A stretch of DNA of 36,404 bases from a virus. Its lineage: Duplodnaviria; Heunggongvirae; Uroviricota; Caudoviricetes. Position 1 is the stretch's first letter, and every line of letters starts with the position of its first letter. The stretch is taken from positions 1-36,404 of the IMG/VR virus record IMGVR_UViG_2923344815_000003. One strand, 5' to 3'. A program made the position numbers and the translations under genes. Below, one piece after another: positions 2,098 through 36,404 of the stretch. The notes under the pieces were generated by a model. It saw only the letters and a program-made list of their open reading frames with translations. It did not search any database and was not told where the DNA came from.

Positions 2098-3207
2098 TCA
2101 CTCTGTTTCCGCTATCCATTCCGGGATTTTTGCCTCAAGCTCAAGCTGCGTGGTAAAGCCGCTGTTATCAATGGTGTGCCCGGCTTTTGCAATAATCCAG
2201 TCCTGATTATCAATCTCGCTTTTAAATCCTGTTACCGTGCCATGCATTTCGGGGTAGAGTTCTGCTCGTCCACGTGCCAGCGTGATGGAGAATGATGCGG
2301 CTCCGCGTTGTAGTTGTTGCCACTTTGCCGCCGCTGCGCGTCTTGCTGCCTGCTCGTTCTGATAAGTCTTGCGTAACACAAACACATTGCCTTCCGCGCC
2401 TTCCATATAATCACCTTCACGGCTGCTGCTTTTCTCTTTTTTCGGTTTTGGCGGTTTGCGGCGTTTCACGCTGACTTTTTTCTTTTTCCCGTAATTAAGA
2501 TCAAGCCAGTAAGCGCGTACCCCCGTATACGCTTCGCGGTCAGCAATGCGGAACTGATGGCGATCGCCGCTGCTGCGTGTGATGGCGAACGATGGCAACG
2601 GCTGGCCCTGTGCGTTCACGCCACCGCCGGGCATGATGAATAACAGATTGCCGCTTTTTACCGTGGTGATTGCGCCCAGCATTTCCGCCATGCGCGTAAG
2701 GAAGGACATGTCGCTTTCTTCGGTCTGGTCGGCGTGGTCGATTTCGATATCCATCAGCATTTCGCTGATTTGCGGTTTCAGACCATACCGATGAGCGATG
2801 GCGGATACCACACGCTCAACGGTCACATCATGCCAGGACACCTCACGTTTAACGTTAAATTCATCCCGAAAATCTGCGCTTCTGGCTGAAACAGTCAGCC
2901 TGTCCGGCGGTCCTTCGTGAGCGATTTCATCAACAATGTAAGTGCCTTTTTCTGTCAGCGGTTCTCCTTTCCAGCCAATGAGAACCGTCAGGCGCGCGCC
3001 CCGTGGCGGTAGCAGCAACTGACCATCCGCATCATCCAGCGTGATGGTGAGCTGGTCCGCCTCAAATCCCCGGTTGTCGGTCAGTGACAGGCTCATCAGG
3101 CGCTCTGCCACGCCTGACAGCGTTTTACCCTCCGCGAGAATATCAAAATCCGGCATTTTTACGGGGTCTGTGCCCTGACTGAGCAATTGCATGGTGGTGT
3201 CGGTCAT
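2098..3207 (-). CDS. D: P2 gpD-like tail protein (late control D)
   Basis: Track ORF 2098-3339; likely start at 3207 (MTDTTMQLL...) preceded by AGGGAGGGAG RBS; sequence typical of gpD family. Confidence 0.85.
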   Translation of the reverse strand: MTDTTMQLLSQGTDPVKMPDFDILAEGKTLSGVAERLMSLSLTDNRGFEADQLTITLDDADGQLLLPPRGARLTVLIGWKGEPLTEKGTYIVDEIAHEGPPDRLTVSARSADFRDEFNVKREVSWHDVTVERVVSAIAHRYGLKPQISEMLMDIEIDHADQTEESDMSFLTRMAEMLGAITTVKSGNLLFIMPGGGVNAQGQPLPSFAITRSSGDRHQFRIADREAYTGVRAYWLDLNYGKKKKVSVKRRKPPKPKKEKSSSREGDYMEGAEGNVFVLRKTYQNEQAARRAAAAKWQQLQRGAASFSITLARGRAELYPEMHGTVTGFKSEIDNQDWIIAKAGHTIDNSGFTTQLELEAKIPEWIAETE

Positions 3208-9711: not shown

Positions 9712-10636
9712 CGATAAAAAACTATTCCTGCGTAATATCGGCACAACAAATTCAACAACCATGTCTTTTAGTGGTGGTGCTGGATGGTTCAAACTGGCAA
9801 CTGTAACAATGCCACAAGCCAGTTCCGTGATTTACATAAGCCTGATTGGTGGCGCAGGGTATAACGTTGGCTCCTCGCATCAAGCAGGCATCTCTGAGCT
9901 GGTTCTGCGTGCCGGAAATGGGAATCCAAAAGGTATTACTGGTGCATTATGGCGACGGACATCGGTTGGATTTACTAATTTTGCATGGGTGAATACATCC
10001 GGTAATACCTATGATGTTTATGTTGAAATAGGTAATTACGCCACAGGTGTTAATATTCAGTGGGATTATACCAGTAACGCCAGCGTAACGATTCATACAT
10101 CACCAACTTATACAGCGAATAAACCAACAGGCCTGACAGATGGAACTGTATATGTAATTTACAGTTCGCACATTAAACCGACTGCTGCTGAGGTTGGGGC
10201 GTTGTCATTATCTGGCGGTCAATTGAATGGTGCACTGGGCATCGGAACATCCAGTGCTCTTGGTGGTAACTCGATTGTTTTGGGTGATAATGACACGGGA
10301 TTTAAACAAAATGGCGACGGGTATCTGGATGTTTATGCGAATAACGTCCATGTTATGCGCTTTGTCTCCGGCAGCATTCAAAGTAATAAAACCATAAATA
10401 TTACAGGGCGTGTTAACCCCTCGGATTACGGTAACTTTGATTCCCGTTATGTGAAAGATGTTCGCCTGGGTACGCGTGTTGTTCAATTGATGGCGCGTGG
10501 TGGTCGTTATGAAAAAGCCGGACACGCAATTACCGGATTAAGAATCATTGGTGAAGTAGATGGCGATGATGAAGCCATCTTCAGACCAATACAAAAATAC
10601 ATCAATGGCACATGGTATAACGTCGCACAGGTGTAA
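9644..10636 (+). CDS. alternative tail-fibre C-terminal exon (silent in this orientation)
   Basis: Reading frame open from the crossover site; first 23 codons (LGLQETVNQASGALQKKQNGADIP) identical to the corresponding stretch of H; C-terminus ...INGTWYNVAQV resembles the H C-terminus; track ORF 9761-10636 is the Met-initiated part. Confidence 0.75.
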   Translation, partial: GLQETVNQASGALQKKQNGADIPDKKLFLRNIGTTNSTTMSFSGGAGWFKLATVTMPQASSVIYISLIGGAGYNVGSSHQAGISELVLRAGNGNPKGITGALWRRTSVGFTNFAWVNTSGNTYDVYVEIGNYATGVNIQWDYTSNASVTIHTSPTYTANKPTGLTDGTVYVIYSSHIKPTAAEVGALSLSGGQLNGALGIGTSSALGGNSIVLGDNDTGFKQNGDGYLDVYANNVHVMRFVSGSIQSNKTINITGRVNPSDYGNFDSRYVKDVRLGTRVVQLMARGGRYEKAGHAITGLRIIGEVDGDDEAIFRPIQKYINGTWYNVAQV

Positions 10637-11731: not shown

Positions 11732-14098
11732 TTAAATACTCCCCGCGTTATACCACGTTCCATTAATGCAATACTGAATTGGCCTTGCCTGAGTTGTATC
11801 AATTAATTCATCACGGTTTCCGTTAACTGAACCCGTAACGACATAACCTGACCTGTCAGACCAGCCGGGACCATTCCATGTCTGAACAGATGACAGACCG
11901 CCCAGGCGAATACCTGTAATAAACCTTGAGTTACATTCTGCCTGCGTATATGCACCAACATCCCCCGCAGAGGGTTTGCGGGTTGTGGTGTAAAACTCTG
12001 ACCAGTTAGCTTCAAAGCCATAACCATCACGCGCTGAACGATAAAAGATACCGCCGTTTTTATAATTCACGCGGAACTGTACAGCAGGGCAACTCCCCGC
12101 ATTCATATTAAAGTGGAGGATTAATGTCGATGCGCCACTGATATCTGCATCATAAACGCCGCTATTCCAGTTCCAGCCAACAGCTTTATCATTTGCAACC
12201 CTGCTTCCTGTTTGCCCTAAAGCAAATGCAGGCTGCTGGTTTTTCGTGTTGTAGTCTCGTCGCCAGCCAGGAGCATAAGCATCACCATGATTAATATAGG
12301 TGAATTGAGCGTTAGTAATTCCGCCGCCGCTGGACGTACTCGCCGTAGTAACGCGTATGGTCATTGCGCCGCGAGTGCCAATAACTTCCACCACTGCACC
12401 TGCAAGACAAATATTTCCGCAACCTGTATCTGTAATGACCTTATTGTTTGCATAAGCCCATGAGCCTTTGCACATCCAGTAAGGATGGTTAAATGCCCCC
12501 TGACTCTCCAGCCACGAAATGAATTGTGCGGTTGTCCAGGTCTGACTATCGCCACCAATATTCAGCCATGCGCTATATGCGCGGCAGGCACCAATATTTT
12601 TGGTGAAGGTATCTTTTCCCGGAATATCTGCGCCGTTCTGTTTTTTCTGTAATGCGCCAGAAGCCTGATTTACCGTTTCCTGTAAACCGAGGTATTCGAT
12701 AACAGCGGCAACGGTCGATTTCGCAAGAATATCCCGCCCGACTTTTGTCAGGGTTGCCAGGCTGGCGACATCATTCCCCGTAAAATACGGAAACCTGTCT
12801 GCCGCAGTAGCAAGCCCGGCCAGCGCCGTCAGGGTGGCATCTTTCGGTTGCTTACCCGCAAGCGCGTTAGTCATGGTGGTCGCAAAATTCGGGTCGTTGC
12901 CCAGCGCCGCCGCCAGCTCGTTCAGCGTATTCAGTGCGTCAGGCGACGAGTCTACAAGTGCGGCAATCGCGGCCATCACATAAGCCGTGCTTGCGATCTG
13001 AGTATTATTAGTCCCTTTTGGCGCAGTTGGCGTTGTTGGCGTTCCGGTCAGCGCAGGACTGTTTAAAGGCGCTTTCTTGTTCGTTTCATCCATTACCGCC
13101 TTAACCGCTTTCGGTGTCGCGGCCAGTGTTTCAGACGTGCTGTTGGTGGCACTACTGAGCTGGACTATCCCTTTTTGTGCCGTCGTGGCGTCCTGAGCGG
13201 TATATTTTGCGTTAGCAAGGTCATACGCGGCCTTTACTGCTTTCGGCGTTGCAGCCTGCGTTTCAGACGTGCTGTTGGTGGCGCTACTGAGCTGGACAAG
13301 GCCTTTTCGCGTCGTGCTGGCATCCTGCGCAGTATATTTTCCGTTAGCAAGGTCATACGCGGCCTTTACTGCTTTCGGCGTTGCAGCCTGCGTTTCAGAC
13401 GTGCTGTTGGTGGCGCTACTGAGCTGAACTATCCCTTTCCGCGCAATGGTAGCGTCCTGTGCGGTGTATTTGCCATTAGCCAGGTCATATGCTGCCTTTA
13501 ATGCTTTCGGCGTTGCAGCCTGCGTTTCAGATGTGCTGTTAGTGGCGCTACTGAGTTGAACAAAGCCTTTTGCGGTCAGCGAGGCGTCCGGGTGACGTCG
13601 TGACCGTTCATGCTCTTTCAGTTTGTCATCCACGTAATCCACTGTGGCCATCACCATGGTGTTATCCACGGTAAGCGCCACGGTGGCAGTGCTGGATACG
13701 GTCAGAATGGTGCGAAACGTTTGTGCACGACCGGACCCTTCGGCAACGGCTGGCTTGTAACTTTCGGCAGTATTGCCCACCGCGATTAAATCGCCGTGCT
13801 CATCAAATACACCAATTTCCCGGATCCAGAATCCGCCCGTTTCAGGAGGAATAACCAGCTCCGCAATAATGCGGTTCTGATGTGTTGCGTCCAGGATGAC
13901 GCGATTAACAGTGTGTCGCCACACCTCATGCACCAGACGGGTCTGCTTACTGTCTGGTGTGGGCAACGTGCCGCCACCGTCGCCCACGGCCATATGAGTC
14001 AGGCAGACAGGCTTACCATCTGGCGCGGCTGCCTGCGCTAATTTTTTTGCACCCGTATCGGTGATAACGGTTTTAAATTTTCGTGTTGTGGTACTCAT
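11732..14098 (-). CDS. H: tail fibre protein gpH (constant N-terminal part plus currently joined variable C-terminal part)
   Basis: 788 aa; conserved P2 H-like N-terminus; four tandem ~40-aa fibre repeats; gix-like site inside the gene at 12677-12702. Confidence 0.9.
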   Translation of the reverse strand: MSTTTRKFKTVITDTGAKKLAQAAAPDGKPVCLTHMAVGDGGGTLPTPDSKQTRLVHEVWRHTVNRVILDATHQNRIIAELVIPPETGGFWIREIGVFDEHGDLIAVGNTAESYKPAVAEGSGRAQTFRTILTVSSTATVALTVDNTMVMATVDYVDDKLKEHERSRRHPDASLTAKGFVQLSSATNSTSETQAATPKALKAAYDLANGKYTAQDATIARKGIVQLSSATNSTSETQAATPKAVKAAYDLANGKYTAQDASTTRKGLVQLSSATNSTSETQAATPKAVKAAYDLANAKYTAQDATTAQKGIVQLSSATNSTSETLAATPKAVKAVMDETNKKAPLNSPALTGTPTTPTAPKGTNNTQIASTAYVMAAIAALVDSSPDALNTLNELAAALGNDPNFATTMTNALAGKQPKDATLTALAGLATAADRFPYFTGNDVASLATLTKVGRDILAKSTVAAVIEYLGLQETVNQASGALQKKQNGADIPGKDTFTKNIGACRAYSAWLNIGGDSQTWTTAQFISWLESQGAFNHPYWMCKGSWAYANNKVITDTGCGNICLAGAVVEVIGTRGAMTIRVTTASTSSGGGITNAQFTYINHGDAYAPGWRRDYNTKNQQPAFALGQTGSRVANDKAVGWNWNSGVYDADISGASTLILHFNMNAGSCPAVQFRVNYKNGGIFYRSARDGYGFEANWSEFYTTTRKPSAGDVGAYTQAECNSRFITGIRLGGLSSVQTWNGPGWSDRSGYVVTGSVNGNRDELIDTTQARPIQYCINGTWYNAGSI
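12621..12690. repeat. right arm of 70-bp perfect inverted repeat
   Basis: Reverse complement equals 9642-9711. Confidence 0.8.
12677..12702. other. gix/cix-like recombination site (right), inside H
   Basis: ttcctgtaaacc-ga-ggtattcgataa. Confidence 0.7.
13100..13590. repeat. four tandem ~120-bp repeats inside H (tail-fibre repeat domain)
   Basis: Protein repeat VQLSSATNSTSETQAATPKAVKAAYDLANGKYTAQDA x4; DNA units nearly identical. Confidence 0.8.
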
Positions 14099-25794: not shown

Positions 25795-26064
25795 TCAATT
25801 GTTGCTGTGTATTAATCGCCAACCACGAACATATGCTTCATAAGCATCTCTGTGCCTTACAGTTCCAGCCTGGCTAAACGGAATGTTAGCTAAAACTAAA
25901 TCATTCTGAGCCATAGCGCGTCCTTCAAGCGCATCTTTTATGCCTAGCTCAAAAGCACAGGCAGCGCATTTGTGCCGACCTTCTTGTCCTTGATATTCAG
26001 GGAGAGACAGAAATGTTGGGTTATAACGATGAGGGTTCTTGCAAATACCTGTTTTAGCCCGCAC
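25795..26064 (-). CDS. hypothetical protein (Cys-containing), cos-proximal accessory locus
   Basis: 89-aa ORF with GTG start and GAGG RBS, or a 39-aa product from Met 25914 with GAAGGA RBS; own terminator downstream. Confidence 0.4.
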   Translation of the reverse strand: MRAKTGICKNPHRYNPTFLSLPEYQGQEGRHKCAACAFELGIKDALEGRAMAQNDLVLANIPFSQAGTVRHRDAYEAYVRGWRLIHSNN

Positions 26065-26087
26065 TTTATTTACCTCATAGGAAAAAT

Positions 26088-26174
26088 ATGCGTGCCTTTA
26101 CAGAGGTGCGTGTAAGCAATAAAATATACGACGCACATTTTGATTTACTTCGGAAGGCACGCATATCAGGTTAA
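26088..26174 (+). CDS. candidate 28-aa small ORF enclosed by a 13-bp inverted repeat
   Basis: AGGAAAAAT RBS then ATG; MRAFTEVRVSNKIYDAHFDLLRKARISG; arms atatgcgtgcctt (26086-26098) and aaggcacgcatat (26154-26166); could instead be a non-coding RNA. Confidence 0.3.
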   Translation: MRAFTEVRVSNKIYDAHFDLLRKARISG

Positions 26175-26195
26175 GTGAGTCCGACCGAGTTCTAC

Positions 26196-26229
26196 GCCCC
26201 AATAGTTGCTGCTATTGGGGCGTTTTGCA
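26196..26229 (+). terminator. rho-independent terminator (plus strand)
   Basis: gccccaatag / ctattggggc stem, then gttttg. Confidence 0.5.
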
Positions 26230-26428
26230 TGGACAATGCCGCGCAATTATCTTGTCGCTCACAATGCGAACGATCTTACAAAAAGGCACATTACTGTCAA
26301 GATAATTGATCGTTTTAATCGATAGATAATAGACAATCTATTTGTTTAACAGATCGATTATTGAAGTAAGTGCGCCAAATGGAATGATACTGTTTCTATA
26401 AATGTGAGCATTTTTCGCGCAGATGCTT

Positions 26429-26740
26429 TTACTCAGGAAATAACGCCCGGATATTCCCAGCCATCTGGCTGGTTATCTTAGCCACTGGTGCAGACTGTGC
26501 TTCAAACTTTTTTGAGCTGATTTGTGTCACAGGTAACATCTCATCATCAGCCCATGCGGCCAGTCGGTAAGCCTCTGCCGGATTCGTCTTCAGAAGTGCC
26601 AGCCCGGCCAGAAAAGCCACGCGTTGGCCGCTTTTGCGGGCTTCTGGTGTAAGGCTGTCCAGCCAGGCGCATGCTTCTCCTTCGTTCTTGACGGCAGCTG
26701 GCTTCAGATAGAAACTTATTCTTCTGGTTGGTGTCGTCAT
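26429..26740 (-). CDS. parR: ParR-like centromere-binding adaptor
   Basis: 103 aa directly downstream of the ParM-like gene; ISFYLKP...WLDSL...AFLAGLAL resembles the ParR N-terminal region as I recall it. Confidence 0.65.
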   Translation of the reverse strand: MTTPTRRISFYLKPAAVKNEGEACAWLDSLTPEARKSGQRVAFLAGLALLKTNPAEAYRLAAWADDEMLPVTQISSKKFEAQSAPVAKITSQMAGNIRALFPE

Positions 26741-26744
26741 TGGT

Positions 26745-27704
26745 TTACTCCTTGTTCATTGCGTACAGCCCATTAACCAGAGCAAAATGTGGCACCCCGT
26801 CCGTGATGAAAGTCGCATTAACTCCGCAGGCTTCGCGGATAGCGGGTGCCACAATCTCCGCCCCTCCACCGACAACCATCACCCGCCCGTAACCGGAAAA
26901 ACCCGCCAGCGCGCGGATCACTCGTTGTTTCAGTGTCTCCTCCTTTTCACGAATAACCGCCATCAGGCTGTTGTAATGCGCGTCATTGTGAATGTGCTGG
27001 CGCAGCCAGGCTTCATCGTGACGGTGCTCAATAATGGTATTGGCGATGTGGTGACTGGTACGCATACCGTTAGTGGCCATCACCGACAGCACGGCATCAG
27101 CCATCAGGGAAACGCCTACGTGTGGATCGCAAAACACCTGGCTGATACCTGCCAGCTGCCCCTGAACCTTTGCCACATCCAGCGTGGTTCCGCCCAAATC
27201 CACAATCAGCAGGGATTCAAACGGACTCATGTCAGCCAGTGCCTTAAAGCCAGCCGGAATGGATTCAGGCATAACCCGCACGTTACGGATAGTGAATGCT
27301 TCGCCGTTCTGGTACTCCACCGGGCGCATAACGTTCGCTTTTTTGCGGTTGATGTTGGCTATGTCCGGCTGTGCGTTTGTGTCGAAATACTCGCTCAGTG
27401 GCAGGGTGACAACCACATCCACCTCCTGTGGCGTGATGCCTGATTTGACCAGCGCGTGATGAATGGCAATGACATTCACATCACTGTACTGGTATTGCGT
27501 GTCGGTCGTCTGGACAAAGCGATCGCTGACCGGATCAAAACCATAGCGCACGCCATCAAGCATGTAGTTCGCGGGCTGCGTGTCACCGAACGGCGCAGAC
27601 CATTCCGACTTGAAGCTGTTCGGGCTGATGGCGTTGCGGCGTTCGCCGTTCTCAGTCCATGCCAGCTTGATGTTGGTGGAGCCGTCGTCGATACAAATTT
27701 TCAT
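26745..27704 (-). CDS. parM: ParM/StbA-family actin-like segregation ATPase
   Basis: 319 aa; MKICIDDGSTNIKLAW, ISPNSFK, YSDVNV, DLGGTTLDV, VVGGGA actin-fold motifs; close to plasmid R1 ParM along the whole length from memory. Confidence 0.85.
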   Translation of the reverse strand: MKICIDDGSTNIKLAWTENGERRNAISPNSFKSEWSAPFGDTQPANYMLDGVRYGFDPVSDRFVQTTDTQYQYSDVNVIAIHHALVKSGITPQEVDVVVTLPLSEYFDTNAQPDIANINRKKANVMRPVEYQNGEAFTIRNVRVMPESIPAGFKALADMSPFESLLIVDLGGTTLDVAKVQGQLAGISQVFCDPHVGVSLMADAVLSVMATNGMRTSHHIANTIIEHRHDEAWLRQHIHNDAHYNSLMAVIREKEETLKQRVIRALAGFSGYGRVMVVGGGAEIVAPAIREACGVNATFITDGVPHFALVNGLYAMNKE

Positions 27705-27735
27705 GTCGCTTTTCCTTATGTTGATTAATTAATCG

Positions 27736-27773
27736 TTTACGGGATTCTGAAATCCCGTTTTTGCCTGTTTTGT
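27736..27773. repeat. direct repeat copy 1 (39 bp with internal dyad) just upstream of parM
   Basis: tttacgggattctgaaatcccgtttttgcctgttttgtg. Confidence 0.7.
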
Positions 27774-27780
27774 GCGCGCT

Positions 27781-30588
27781 TCATATATCGCTGCGCGTTT
27801 TTTGCTCATTTACGGGATTCGTGAGTCCCGTTTCTGTCTGTTTTTTGTTTCCACTGGTCAGGCCACCCTGCAGCAGGTCTGCTTTGCGGCTGGCGCGTTC
27901 AGTGGTTTCACTGATTCTCTGTGCGTGCTCTGCGTCGCGGATGGCGCGCAGCATGTCAGAAAGCACGGTAACGGGTGTTTTCATGGTGTTCTGATCCTGC
28001 TGAAGTGCGGATGCCAGGCGTGCGGCGGCTTCGGGGTCTGATGCCCCCAGCTGTGCCAGATAGCTGGCGACCGGGTTATGGCGGATCTCCGTGCTGCTTA
28101 CGCCGTGATTACGGCTCAGGTGCTGCCAGAGCTGCGTGATTCGGCTGTCCGGGCGGGTATCCGGTTTGCGTACAATTTCATATCCCTGCGGTGCAATGAT
28201 GCTGCCGTCAACGTACAGGCTGCCGCCCCGTAGCAGGTGCTGCGTCTGCTGTTCACCGATATGCAGGCCGAGAGATTCGGCAGACTCCCGCCATTCTTTA
28301 GCGAGTAATTCGTGGTTATCAGGCAAAGGCCGCTGCTGTTTGCGGCTCTGTGTCCAGCTCTGCATTTCATCACTGCTGTTTTTTGCCTGTTTGTCACGAA
28401 GCGAACGCATCAGCGCCCGGCGTTCGTGCCGTTTCAGTGAGCGCATCCATTCGTTCACTTCAACGCCGTCAGGAAGCTGCGGCCACGGTGCTGGCCGTTC
28501 TTTCGACTGTTCTGTCCCGCTGTTGCCTGTTTCCTGTACACGGGGACAGTTATTGCCACGAGTCCAAGGGGCGGCAGGGCCGCCCTGAAGGTCAAAACCA
28601 TTTTCGCGGGCGCTGTCTTCCGCTTCCGGTTTGCGTCTTACCAGCTTCCAGTTATCCGGATGCGTGCACACACGGGAGGATTCCCCGATGAGTGGTGACC
28701 AGATCCCGTAAATCTGTACGCTCTGTTCGCCGTAATCGTTCAGCTCATCGGCGAGGTCGTAGGCGGTGCGAATCAGGTAGTCTTTGCGTGGAACAAGTAC
28801 GCCGCCCTGTTTCTCTATGTAGGTGGCAAAACATCCTGCATCAGCGGCAGCGAGTACCGCATCCATTGCGTCATCCTTCAGCCGTTGCGGGCCTTCCGGG
28901 TTGCGTGCCATCTGGCTGGCAAGGCGGCGGAGTTCACGCCACACCTGACGGGAGGGGATGCCAAAGAACTGGAACTGGCGGACCCGGTGAAGGCGCGCCC
29001 AGCCGATGGCGCGTTCCACGCTCTCGGCCATTGATTTTCCGGTTTCGTGGTCAACGCGTGGCTTGCCCGTTTTCTGGTCGATGCCATCCACGGCGCGGCT
29101 GTCCAGGTTCTTTCCGATGTAGGTGGCGATGTAGCTGGTTGGTGTGCCTTTTGAGCCGTCTACGTACTCCGCCTTAAAACGCGGAGTTATGTCATCGCCC
29201 AGCTCGTGGCGGTCTTCCTGAATGGCAATATCGCAGACGTGGGACACGATGGTTTCAATCTCGTCCGGATGTGCAAAGACCATCATATGCCAGTGCACGG
29301 TGCCGTCATGGTGAGGCTCCACCGTGCGGATGCCATACCAGCGCAGGCCGTCGCGGTTCAGTTTCTTGCGGACCGCCGCAAAAAACGTGTTAACCAGGTA
29401 ATCGCTGGAGTCGCGCATGGTGGCCCCGTTCCATTTGGGATTCGGATGACCGTTCTCTGTTGTGGCGTGGTATTTTGACGGGCAGGTGACAGTCAGAAAC
29501 ACCGCTTTGTCGCCACGGGCTTCGGCCAGAAGTTCCAGCCCCTTCATGGTGGCCATCATTTCTGCCTTACGGTGAACCGGGTTACTTACTCCCGCGTAAT
29601 ACACTGTCTCGAGATCAATCGTGAACCCGTCTTCGTTTTCCAGCATGAAACTTTTCAGGAAATCGCGTGTTTTCTCGCGCTGTGCGCGAAACTCGCTTAA
29701 CGCGTCCTGGCTCAGATAGGGTGATGTTTTTCTGGAAACCAGACAGGCGGCGCGGAGTTGTTCTTCTCTCCACTCGCAACGTAACAGCCACAATTTGCGT
29801 TTCCACCATTCCGCACAGGTCAGGCGAAGGATTGCGCCCGGTAACAGTTCCGTATCCGGATCGCTCTTGTTCAGGGCTTCGTAATGTGGCGGCATGATGT
29901 GCAGGCGTAATGCGATACGGGCCAGCATCCGGTAAGCCTTCAACATTACATCCATGGTCAGCTCGCCATCTCTGGCACCAAAGCCATCGCAGAGTGTTTC
30001 GAAGGTGCTGCTGAACATCGCCGCCGTCATGGTGGCCAGCGTCTGTATCTGGTGCTTGTTGAGCTGCGGCAGGTAAAGCAAATCGTCCAGGCGTTCGCGC
30101 CCGGCAAGGGAGCGATAACCCGGTGTCAGCCAGCGCCCGTCAGTGCGATCCAGACGTTCGAATATTTTGCGCAGGGTCCCGCGCGCGTAGCGTTCAGCCT
30201 GCTGGTTCTTTTTACCTTTCTGGCGGTCAGATTCCTGTTTTTTGCGCAGGAAGGAGAGGTGGCGAATAAGCGGATCGCGCAGATAGGATGGCAGCAGGCG
30301 CAGCGAGGCCATGGCTTCATCCACCGCGCCGCGTACCTGCTTTCTGGCGTCTCCTGCCAGTGTGATGGTTTTGTCCTGTTTTTCCTGTGCGTCCAGGCTT
30401 TTATTAATCAGGTTGCCCAGCGGCGTGGCGGAGAACGCCGCATCAGCCATTTCCTGGCAGCGCTCGTTCTCTGCCCGGTAGGCATCCAGCCAGGAGGAAA
30501 GCGCGGATTCAGGAGCGGGGATCCCCGTTCCTTCACGCCCCACTGCGTGGCGCGGTTGCTGCCAGTCCCTGATGTACTCTGCCGTCAT
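27781..30588 (-). CDS. A: replication initiation endonuclease gpA (rolling-circle initiator)
   Basis: 935 aa; HxH (VHWHMMVF) and double-tyrosine YIATYIGK motifs. Confidence 0.9.
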   Translation of the reverse strand: MTAEYIRDWQQPRHAVGREGTGIPAPESALSSWLDAYRAENERCQEMADAAFSATPLGNLINKSLDAQEKQDKTITLAGDARKQVRGAVDEAMASLRLLPSYLRDPLIRHLSFLRKKQESDRQKGKKNQQAERYARGTLRKIFERLDRTDGRWLTPGYRSLAGRERLDDLLYLPQLNKHQIQTLATMTAAMFSSTFETLCDGFGARDGELTMDVMLKAYRMLARIALRLHIMPPHYEALNKSDPDTELLPGAILRLTCAEWWKRKLWLLRCEWREEQLRAACLVSRKTSPYLSQDALSEFRAQREKTRDFLKSFMLENEDGFTIDLETVYYAGVSNPVHRKAEMMATMKGLELLAEARGDKAVFLTVTCPSKYHATTENGHPNPKWNGATMRDSSDYLVNTFFAAVRKKLNRDGLRWYGIRTVEPHHDGTVHWHMMVFAHPDEIETIVSHVCDIAIQEDRHELGDDITPRFKAEYVDGSKGTPTSYIATYIGKNLDSRAVDGIDQKTGKPRVDHETGKSMAESVERAIGWARLHRVRQFQFFGIPSRQVWRELRRLASQMARNPEGPQRLKDDAMDAVLAAADAGCFATYIEKQGGVLVPRKDYLIRTAYDLADELNDYGEQSVQIYGIWSPLIGESSRVCTHPDNWKLVRRKPEAEDSARENGFDLQGGPAAPWTRGNNCPRVQETGNSGTEQSKERPAPWPQLPDGVEVNEWMRSLKRHERRALMRSLRDKQAKNSSDEMQSWTQSRKQQRPLPDNHELLAKEWRESAESLGLHIGEQQTQHLLRGGSLYVDGSIIAPQGYEIVRKPDTRPDSRITQLWQHLSRNHGVSSTEIRHNPVASYLAQLGASDPEAAARLASALQQDQNTMKTPVTVLSDMLRAIRDAEHAQRISETTERASRKADLLQGGLTSGNKKQTETGLTNPVNEQKTRSDI
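27809..27847. repeat. direct repeat copy 2, encoding the last 13 codons of gene A
   Basis: tttacgggattcgtgagtcccgtttctgtctgttttttg; minus strand encodes KKQTETGLTNPVN. Confidence 0.7.
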
Positions 30589-35402: not shown

Positions 35403-36404
35403 ATGTCGGTTCGTAAGATTCCATCAGGTAAATGGCTTTGCGAATGTTATCCCTACGGGGCATCGGGAAAACGCATTCGTAAACAGTTTGCGACAAAAAG
35501 TGAGGCGCTCTCTTATGAGCGCCGTTTAATGAATAGTAGAGTTGGAGACGAGTTTCAAGATGGTTCTGGTCCTCGTCTTTCTGAGTTGATTGCTCGTTGG
35601 TTTGAGATGTACGGTAAAACCTTGTCCTCTGGTGCAGAGCGCAAAGTCAAACTTGAGGCGATTTGTTCCAGGCTGGGAGATCCATTTGCTTCGCAGTTTG
35701 ACAAAAATATGTTTGCTACTTATCGGGAAAGAAGGCTATCAGGAGAATGGAATCCCAAGGGGAAGAAAAAACTTAGTGAAGCAACCGTTAATCGCGAGCA
35801 GTCATATCTACATGCTGTTTTTGCCGAACTGAAGCGCCTTGGGGAGTGGTCTGGTGAAAACCCCCTGACTGGTATTCGCAAGTTTCGTGAGGAAGAAAAG
35901 GAACTGGCGTTTCTGTATGTAGATGAGATTGAACGCCTTCTGATTGCGTGTGATGAGTCACGGAATAAAGATTTGGGGGTTGTTGTCCGTATTGGGCTTG
36001 CGACTGGTGCTCGGTGGAGTGAAGCAGAAGGATTAAAGCAATCTCAAGTACTGCCCGGTCGAATCACATTTGTTAAAACTAAAGGAAAGAAGAACCGCAC
36101 TGTACCGATTTCACCTCAATTGCAGGCTATGCTTCCTAAAAAACGAGGAGCGCTATTTTCACCATGTTATGAGGCTTTTGACGCTGCAATTAAGAGAGCG
36201 AAGATCGAGCTTCCTGATGGGCAATTAACTCATGTGCTACGTCACACGTTTGCCAGTCATTTTATGATGCGGGGCGGAAATATTCTTGTGTTGCAAAAAA
36301 TACTGGGGCATAGCGATATAAAAATGACTATGCGTTATGCGCATTTTGCTCCAGGTCATTTAGAGGCTGCTGTTGAATTGAACCCTTTTGACAATAGAGG
36401 GTAA
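35403..36404 (+). CDS. int: tyrosine-type phage integrase
   Basis: 333 aa; C-terminal catalytic region HVLRHTFASH...MRYAHF (R-H-R-Y box); stop codon is the last triplet of the window. Confidence 0.9.
   Translation: MSVRKIPSGKWLCECYPYGASGKRIRKQFATKSEALSYERRLMNSRVGDEFQDGSGPRLSELIARWFEMYGKTLSSGAERKVKLEAICSRLGDPFASQFDKNMFATYRERRLSGEWNPKGKKKLSEATVNREQSYLHAVFAELKRLGEWSGENPLTGIRKFREEEKELAFLYVDEIERLLIACDESRNKDLGVVVRIGLATGARWSEAEGLKQSQVLPGRITFVKTKGKKNRTVPISPQLQAMLPKKRGALFSPCYEAFDAAIKRAKIELPDGQLTHVLRHTFASHFMMRGGNILVLQKILGHSDIKMTMRYAHFAPGHLEAAVELNPFDNRG

Follow-up and report, generated by a model that had tools for sequence, protein, structure and literature searches.

The stretch of DNA analysed here, hereafter the window, comprises the 36,404 nt of IMG/VR virus record IMGVR_UViG_2923344815_000003 and is a P88/Sp13-like P2-type prophage of the genus Xuanwuvirus. 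We describe a pair of direct repeats at the 3' end of its replication endonuclease gene gpA (gene A), just upstream of the partition genes parM and parR, which we consider a putative centromere of the encoded partition system. The local genes are all on the minus strand, in the order gpA, then parM, then parR. The features of the locus are listed below, with distances from parM counted from its ATG in parM sense.

27781..30588, minus strand: gpA, replication endonuclease, 935 amino acids; its last ~21 codons come from the par cassette.
27806..27847, minus strand: distal repeat (copy 2), over gpA codons 914-928; its outer edge, ~27845-27847, bounds the par cassette on the left.
27814..27829, minus strand: distal 16-bp dyad core, GGGACTCACGAATCCC in parM sense, at -125..-110; fits GGG-N10-CCC.
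27775..27805, minus strand: stretch of 31 nt between the repeats, holding the last eight A codons (residues 928-935) and the A stop.
27733..27774, minus strand: proximal repeat (copy 1), in the non-coding gap from the A stop to parM.
27741..27756, minus strand: proximal 16-bp dyad core, GGGATTTCAGAATCCC in parM sense, at -52..-37.
27728..27733, minus strand: ATTAAT, 7-14 nt past the proximal dyad; invariant in all four lineages that have the paired sites (see below).
26745..27704, minus strand: parM, actin-like partition ATPase, 319 amino acids (PF06406, PF21523; R1 ParM 1MWK).
26429..26740, minus strand: parR, centromere-binding adaptor, 103 amino acids (PF10784; profile match to pB171 ParR 2JD3).

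The direct repeat is 42 nt long (27733-27774 vs. 27806-27847), with 34 of 42 positions identical (81%) and a start-to-start distance of 73 bp; in 20 local shuffles of the whole window, the top-scoring pair of 42-mers less than 200 bp apart matched at only 24-28 of 42 positions. A preliminary description of the locus had given its length as 39 bp, which is corrected here, and had noted the internal dyad and the position of copy 1 about 30 bp upstream of the parM start, both of which hold: the proximal copy ends 28-31 nt before the ATG (27704), and each copy contains the dyad ACGGGATT-N4-AATCCCGT with 8-bp arms, of the form GGGAYT-N4-AATCCC. A search of both strands with this dyad pattern, allowing up to three mismatches, returned five matches against 0.34 expected by chance, these being both repeat copies on both strands and one weak three-mismatch site at 10428. 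The 31 nt between the repeats are the most variable part of the region among close relatives.

The position of the repeats relative to gene A differs from that first proposed, in which copy 2 encoded the last 13 residues of A and copy 1 lay 35 bp downstream of its stop. Gene A ends with the TGA at 27781-27783, and the 'tca' at 27806-27808 that had been presumed to be its stop is out of frame with the gene. The distal copy encodes A residues 914-928 (NKKQTETGLTNPVNE), the codon of residue 928 overlapping the copy; seven codons (QKTRSDI) remain after it, and the proximal copy starts 6 nt past the stop. The gap between A and parM is 76 nt, likewise in the RefSeq annotations of relatives.

Two other stretches of gene A were considered as further repeats, a '62% third copy' at 28495-28536 and a 13-mer at 28380, and were rejected since the dyad is absent from both. 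At 28376-28392, GTTTTTTGCCTGTTTGT (coding for DKQAKN) resembles the T-rich tail of the proximal copy, with which it has the exact 13-mer TTTTTGCCTGTTT in common and no adjoining dyad; the resemblance may be due to chance or may be an echo of the A-tail sequence.

ParM matches PF06406 (E 1e-82), PF21523 (E 3e-67) and, over its full length, R1 ParM (1MWK, E 4e-93); its diversity by codon position among close relatives (0.009/0.005/0.063) indicates purifying selection. The parR gene begins 4 nt after parM, and its product, the only DNA-binding protein in the cassette, matches PF10784 (E 1e-23). A single-sequence search with ParR among solved structures gave no match, and a profile was needed: a profile of ParRs matches 2JD3, the StbB/ParR of pB171, over its full length (E 2.7e-16). 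We therefore take ParR to be an R1/pB171-type protein, with a ribbon-helix-helix fold predicted by homology to pB171 ParR (the fold itself being known from the literature). Near the C-terminus of ParR, N-x(4)-F is an invariant motif; its fuller form, NxxxLFP, is present in all prophage ParRs.

A double-dyad scan of IMG/VR recovered at least 120 contigs, and wherever the fetched DNA holds a complete parM, the dyad pair is found just upstream of it. We also assembled a set of loci anchored on ParM, which is unbiased regarding the dyads and contains 78 loci with enough upstream DNA; 77 of these align through the repeat region, and in the sole exception (L190) the upstream context switches at the cassette edge with both repeats still there. 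A ParM single-protein scan of genome contigs yielded only three near-identical loci, and a Shigella locus (L007) is uninformative as an insertion sequence element interrupts its parM.

Beyond the window's own, four other upstream contexts were found: L190 and L077 with a shorter A and a small open reading frame (ORF), L058 with an A of 768 amino acids and an ORF of 159 amino acids, and the Hafnia locus L018 with an A of 913 amino acids. In all four, unrelated sequence meets the unit of copy 2, copy 1, parM and parR at the outer edge of copy 2 (~27845-27847); homology of the window to L190 and L058 begins at -141/-142 in parM sense, corresponding to window positions 27845-27846. In the relatives with a similar A but without parMR (L004 and L005), homology ends at 27867 and 27897, 20-50 nt before copy 2, and a search for the dyad in these two Escherichia coli prophages found neither copy. 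The reading of copy 2 also changes with its context. It reads ...KQTETGxTNPVNEQKTRSDI in the window and L190, is in another frame in L077 and Hafnia, with a stop inside or directly after the dyad, and is probably non-coding in L058, where it lies past the stop of the last sizeable ORF; this points to a constraint on the nucleotides and not on the A protein. Over five upstream contexts, a repeated cis site upstream of parM moves with the genes. Judged by these junctions, the par cassette is portable as a unit of copy 2, copy 1, parM and parR, and gene A in the window reads into this cassette, making the distal repeat also coding.

As a separate observation, the two copies of the IMG/VR phage L190 (~2860-3000) share an identical G>A change in their 5' half-sites (CGGGA>CAGGA), with an unchanged ParR N-terminus. 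This may reflect gene conversion between the copies or a parallel change, and is uninformative for the link between ParR and its site.

The arrangement of the dyads is retained in much more distant lineages. ParM homologues of 54-63% identity are encoded downstream of gpA in P2-like prophages of Plesiomonas (63% identity to the window), Hafnia-2 (61%), Serratia and Enterobacter. Exactly two GGG-N10-CCC sites occur in the 220 nt upstream of parM in the window, Hafnia-1, Hafnia-2 and Plesiomonas, at the following distances from the ATG:

Window: -125/-52, spacing 73.
Hafnia-1: -124/-51, spacing 73.
Hafnia-2: -128/-55, spacing 73.
Plesiomonas: -131/-59, spacing 72.

Such a pair of sites appeared in 0-1 of 20000 shuffles. 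Outside the GGG-N10-CCC cores and the invariant ATTAAT, the sequence has largely diverged across the four lineages. The two Plesiomonas cores are identical to one another at 14 of 16 positions and are more distant from the cores of the other lineages, as is expected of two sites fitting one protein. Instead of the GGG-N10-CCC pair, Serratia and Enterobacter have a 19-20-nt inverted repeat with arms 28 nt apart, and their ParRs are larger (133-134 amino acids). This repeat is a candidate centromere in its own right, located upstream of parM at 3382-3447 of L223 and 3383-3450 of L224 (arm AGGAACGAAATAGAAAAAT and its complement). Plasmid relatives (~50% ParM identity) have R1-style T-rich iterons of 10-11 bp around a promoter and no such dyads. 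Every plasmid match to the phage ParRs was either a phage-derived copy or a homologue of <40% identity, and no plasmid counterpart of the site was found.

The N-terminal segments of the ParR proteins can be set beside these site types:

TRR(I/V)SFY (residues 5-11): two GGG-N10-CCC sites 72-73 bp apart; present in every lineage with those sites.
NRKISFY: 19-20-nt inverted repeats; Serratia and Enterobacter.
RRKI(T/Q)FY: R1-style short iterons; three plasmid relatives.
NRKCSFY: R1-style short iterons; the fourth plasmid relative (L011).

The TRR(I/V)SFY segment of ParR thus appears to track the GGG-N10-CCC site type.

Within the E. coli phages, ParR falls into two allele classes of ~55% identity, behind near-identical ParM and identical dyads. 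Among the alleles (26429-26740 of the window, L006, L008 and others), conservation covers the first ~66 residues and the NI(R/Q)xLFPE at the C-terminus, and the linker (~67-95) is hypervariable; all common N-terminal variants of both classes agree in their first 14 residues. A search for covariation of the allele class with dyad variants found none, both classes having the same dyads.

The DNA around the repeats is also unusual in the window. Positions 27671-27900 show the strongest A/T-tract periodicity of 10-11 bp in its 36 kb, with the top 15 of 7251 scanned segments located here, and eight AAA[CT] motifs recur in phase with a period of 10.4 bp (R=0.79, matched in 0 of 2000 shuffles). By comparison across lineages, this phasing appears to be a feature of the window's lineage and is not defining for the site. 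The invariant ATTAAT may be a putative -10-like element of a weak parMR promoter.

Given the linkage of the repeats to parMR, their position at the cassette boundary and the conserved geometry of 72-73 bp, we think it likely, from sequence comparison, that they constitute a bipartite, parC-like centromere and operator for ParR binding which overlaps the 3' end of gene A and belongs to a type II ParMRC system of P2-type prophages. The preliminary description had mentioned centromere-like repeats as a possibility, and of its suggestions this is the one that the comparison favours. The order of repeats, parM and parR, with the repeats next to parM, matches that of R1, pB171, pSK41 and srpC of SXT (PMC2241845, PMC9426499, PMC4489591) and likewise favours a centromere. 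ParR dimers would occupy both of the 16-bp GGG-N10-CCC dyads, two dimers probably pairing on each because the half-sites are about one helical turn apart; the dyads, at a distance of 73 bp or about seven turns, would be on the same face of the helix. With both ParR complexes in place, the ~145-bp region could then be folded into a segrosome capping or capturing the ends of ParM filaments, and ParR on the proximal dyad would probably act as a repressor of parMR as well.

The proposed site shares several features with characterized systems and differs from each of them. The parC site of R1 is bipartite and curved, and together with ParR it adopts a U-shaped fold (PMC2241845). The prophage site is similarly located directly upstream of parM-parR and bipartite with a central core, its ParM is a close structural-family homologue of R1 ParM and its ParR belongs to the same Pfam family; the strongest A-tract phasing of the window lies here. 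However, R1 has 2 x 5 direct iterons of 11 bp around a defined promoter, whereas the prophage has two 42-nt units built on 16-bp inverted GGG-N10-CCC cores without a clear promoter, and its distal unit overlaps the coding 3' end of a replication gene. The closest solved ParR is that of pB171 par1, whose centromere upstream of parM is reported to consist of just two repeats (PMC9426499), a precedent for the two-repeat centromere proposed for the prophage; the pB171 repeats are adjacent direct repeats of 10 bp, whereas the prophage dyads are seven helical turns apart. The prophage ParR is <40% identical to any plasmid ParR.

Two further systems are found on elements that, like the prophage, are not plasmids. 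The srpMRC locus of the SXT/R391 integrative and conjugative elements (ICEs) stabilizes the excised form; it is a type II locus on a normally integrated element, with a centromere, srpC, that lies upstream of a parM-like gene and combines direct with inverted repeats to which the adaptor binds, as proposed here for the prophage (PMC4489591). In contrast to the prophage system, SrpR lacks a recognizable ParR domain, srpC has four 13-bp repeats, and the host element is an ICE and not a phage. AlpAC of prophage CGP3 handles phage DNA after induction, and consists of a prophage-encoded actin-like filament and an adaptor that binds sites (alpS) upstream of its own operon (PMC4446434, PMC5539076), although its proteins and sites are unrelated in sequence to ours and occur in another phage type and host (Corynebacterium).

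Three other explanations were weighed against a ParR-binding centromere. The preliminary description had suggested a recombination scar from acquisition of the par module, in which insertion beside A duplicated the A 3' end and left copies without function; one copy does overlap the A 3' end with the other just past the stop, and the region is a module junction in P2-like phages. However, both copies are on the same side of parMR and do not flank it, and they move with it behind the four other contexts. A comparison of A 3' ends and junctions in relatives with other cargo found neither copy in L004 and L005, which leaves no pre-existing A sequence to duplicate, and the 72-73 bp spacing is kept at ~60% ParM identity (61-63% in Hafnia-2 and Plesiomonas) although the flanks have diverged. 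An insertion scar or target duplication was rejected on these grounds, and we regard it as extremely improbable. An element acting at the level of RNA, either as hairpins in the gpA-parM mRNA (processing or stability) or as two plus-strand terminators that stop antisense transcription, is also very unlikely. Its attraction is that both copies score as terminator-like, that each hairpin has a folding energy of roughly -9 to -11 kcal/mol (z between -2.3 and -3.7; z -3.5 for the 166-nt sense RNA), and that the variants common in close relatives, A>G on the 5' side of the stem and C>T on the 3' side, would retain G-U pairs in the sense RNA. However, the terminator score is on the plus strand only, antisense to every local gene, and no gene or promoter-like site was found feeding plus-strand transcription into the stems; the sense strand has no U-run after them. 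In Hafnia-2 and Plesiomonas the stem is reduced to its three outer G-C pairs and the T-run is absent. Pair counts across the lineages leave nine of 24 inner cells unpaired with one double change, covariation being no better than in shuffles (215/500), and an Rfam search of the repeat region gave no match. An intrinsic terminator was rejected for the loss of stem and T-run in these two lineages, the lack of covariation and the restriction to the plus strand.

The remaining explanation is that the repeats bind another factor, such as a regulator encoded by the phage or a nucleoid or regulatory protein of the host, or that they serve ParR purely as an operator, controlling transcription or translation near the junction of A and parM without a role in segregation. 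Promoter and function remain putative, the phage integrates (it encodes an integrase at 35403-36404, at the window end, and the junction is mostly chromosomal in E. coli), which makes classical plasmid partition seem unnecessary, and a protein bound at the distal site within gene A could affect A expression. Yet the sites move with parMR among A alleles, and their partner should therefore be encoded by the cassette or be universal; ParM is under strong purifying selection, the invariant N-x(4)-F of ParR fits a working ParM-ParR-DNA machine, and the operator is the centromere in every characterized type II system (PMC2241845, PMC9426499). We consider this explanation unlikely.

Several points weigh against a ParR-binding centromere and should be considered with it. 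The proposal is drawn wholly from sequence comparison, and the site is putative. It has only two strong sites, compared with ten iterons in R1, and its conserved core consists of inverted GGG half-sites, while the characterized ParRs are described on direct repeats. Diversity of the dyad arms among close relatives (0.04-0.05) is only modestly below that of parM third positions (0.063), the correlation between ParR and site type comes from few independent clades, and the AAA[CT] phasing is much weaker in distant lineages and not conserved in Hafnia-2 and Plesiomonas. The AlphaFold model of ParR (predicted local distance difference test score, pLDDT, of 56) is too poor for a fold search, which is why the ribbon-helix-helix fold rests on sequence homology. 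A convincing sigma-70 promoter was sought on both strands and none was found: a consensus scan gave no site here, and the best sigma-70-like match, TTCAGA-16-ATTAAT, overlaps the proximal dyad and scores 8/12. Any autoregulated promoter within the site is thus putative, and transcripts of gene A may continue into parMR.

The cassette is widespread. The 3-kb region is 95-97% identical over its full length to phages 520873 and 503458, and ~95% identical over 78% of its length to P88 and Citrobacter phiSM. The 441-bp junction (at least 80% coverage) is present in 1286 of 5426 complete E. coli genomes, mostly on the chromosome. We also noted an enterobacterial prophage region in a record labelled Vagococcus sp. 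(L010, NZ_JBQPOM010000071.1), with a ParM of 96% identity, which is likely contamination or a mislabelled assembly. A complete P88-like phage from an E. coli of a cat is deposited as a circular 'plasmid' of 34,461 bp (L226, NZ_CP148288.1), with a gene content that includes integrase, cox, gpA, parM and parR; it may represent phage DNA that has been excised or is replicating, or a genuine episome, and alone proves nothing.

The idea that parMR is itself variable cargo does not apply to this genus, across which parM-parR is conserved; the variable cargo is located between parR and the portal gene. More broadly, the interval between A and the portal gene is a cargo hotspot: in place of parMR, L004 (421-3791) encodes an S8 peptidase and an AAA ATPase (defence-like), and L005 (1387-3914) three hypothetical genes. 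In the variable cargo of the window (26086-26308), perfect inverted repeats of 13 nt (26086/26154), 12 nt (26194/26212) and 11 nt (26244/26298) occur together with the only two sigma-70-like sites of a 3.3-kb scan (26097-26125, plus strand; 26300-26273, minus strand); these are probably control elements of an ORF of 89 amino acids at 25795-26064 (phrog_3941). Elsewhere in the window, three tandem copies of a 132-nt unit (13098-13571; 86-88% identical, with a perfect 42-mer) are found in an ORF of 788 amino acids at 11732-14098 on the minus strand, an apparent tail-fibre gene, where they would form a repeated module of 44 amino acids.

The distinctive feature of the prophage site is its layout, with two dyads 73 bp apart and the distal one inside a replication gene. 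We found no description of this repeat site in the searchable literature, and phage papers refer to parMR only as genes for 'partition' or 'fitness' (PMC6456863). Cassette DNA supplies the last ~21 codons of gene A, and the sequence of these codons would be set by a putative DNA-binding site. The likeliest role of the system would be to stabilize or position the excised or replicating circular genome, comparable to srpMRC and AlpAC. That P88/Sp13-like phages use ParMRC to move or space monomeric circular replication products, or to keep a plasmid-like carrier state, is a more specific proposal that we regard as rather doubtful; if true, the overlap of centromere and gene A would physically couple ParR loading to A expression or replication, and such use of an actin spindle by a phage has not yet been described for Gram-negative temperate phages. 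For studies of ParR and the segrosome, the locus offers a candidate compact two-site centromere variant with a conserved geometry of 72-73 bp. If a centromere is the right reading, the repeats are the missing third component of a full ParMRC system in a very common type of E. coli prophage, present in about a quarter of the complete genomes, and the use of a plasmid spindle by an integrating, rolling-circle-replicating P2-like phage would become a testable question.

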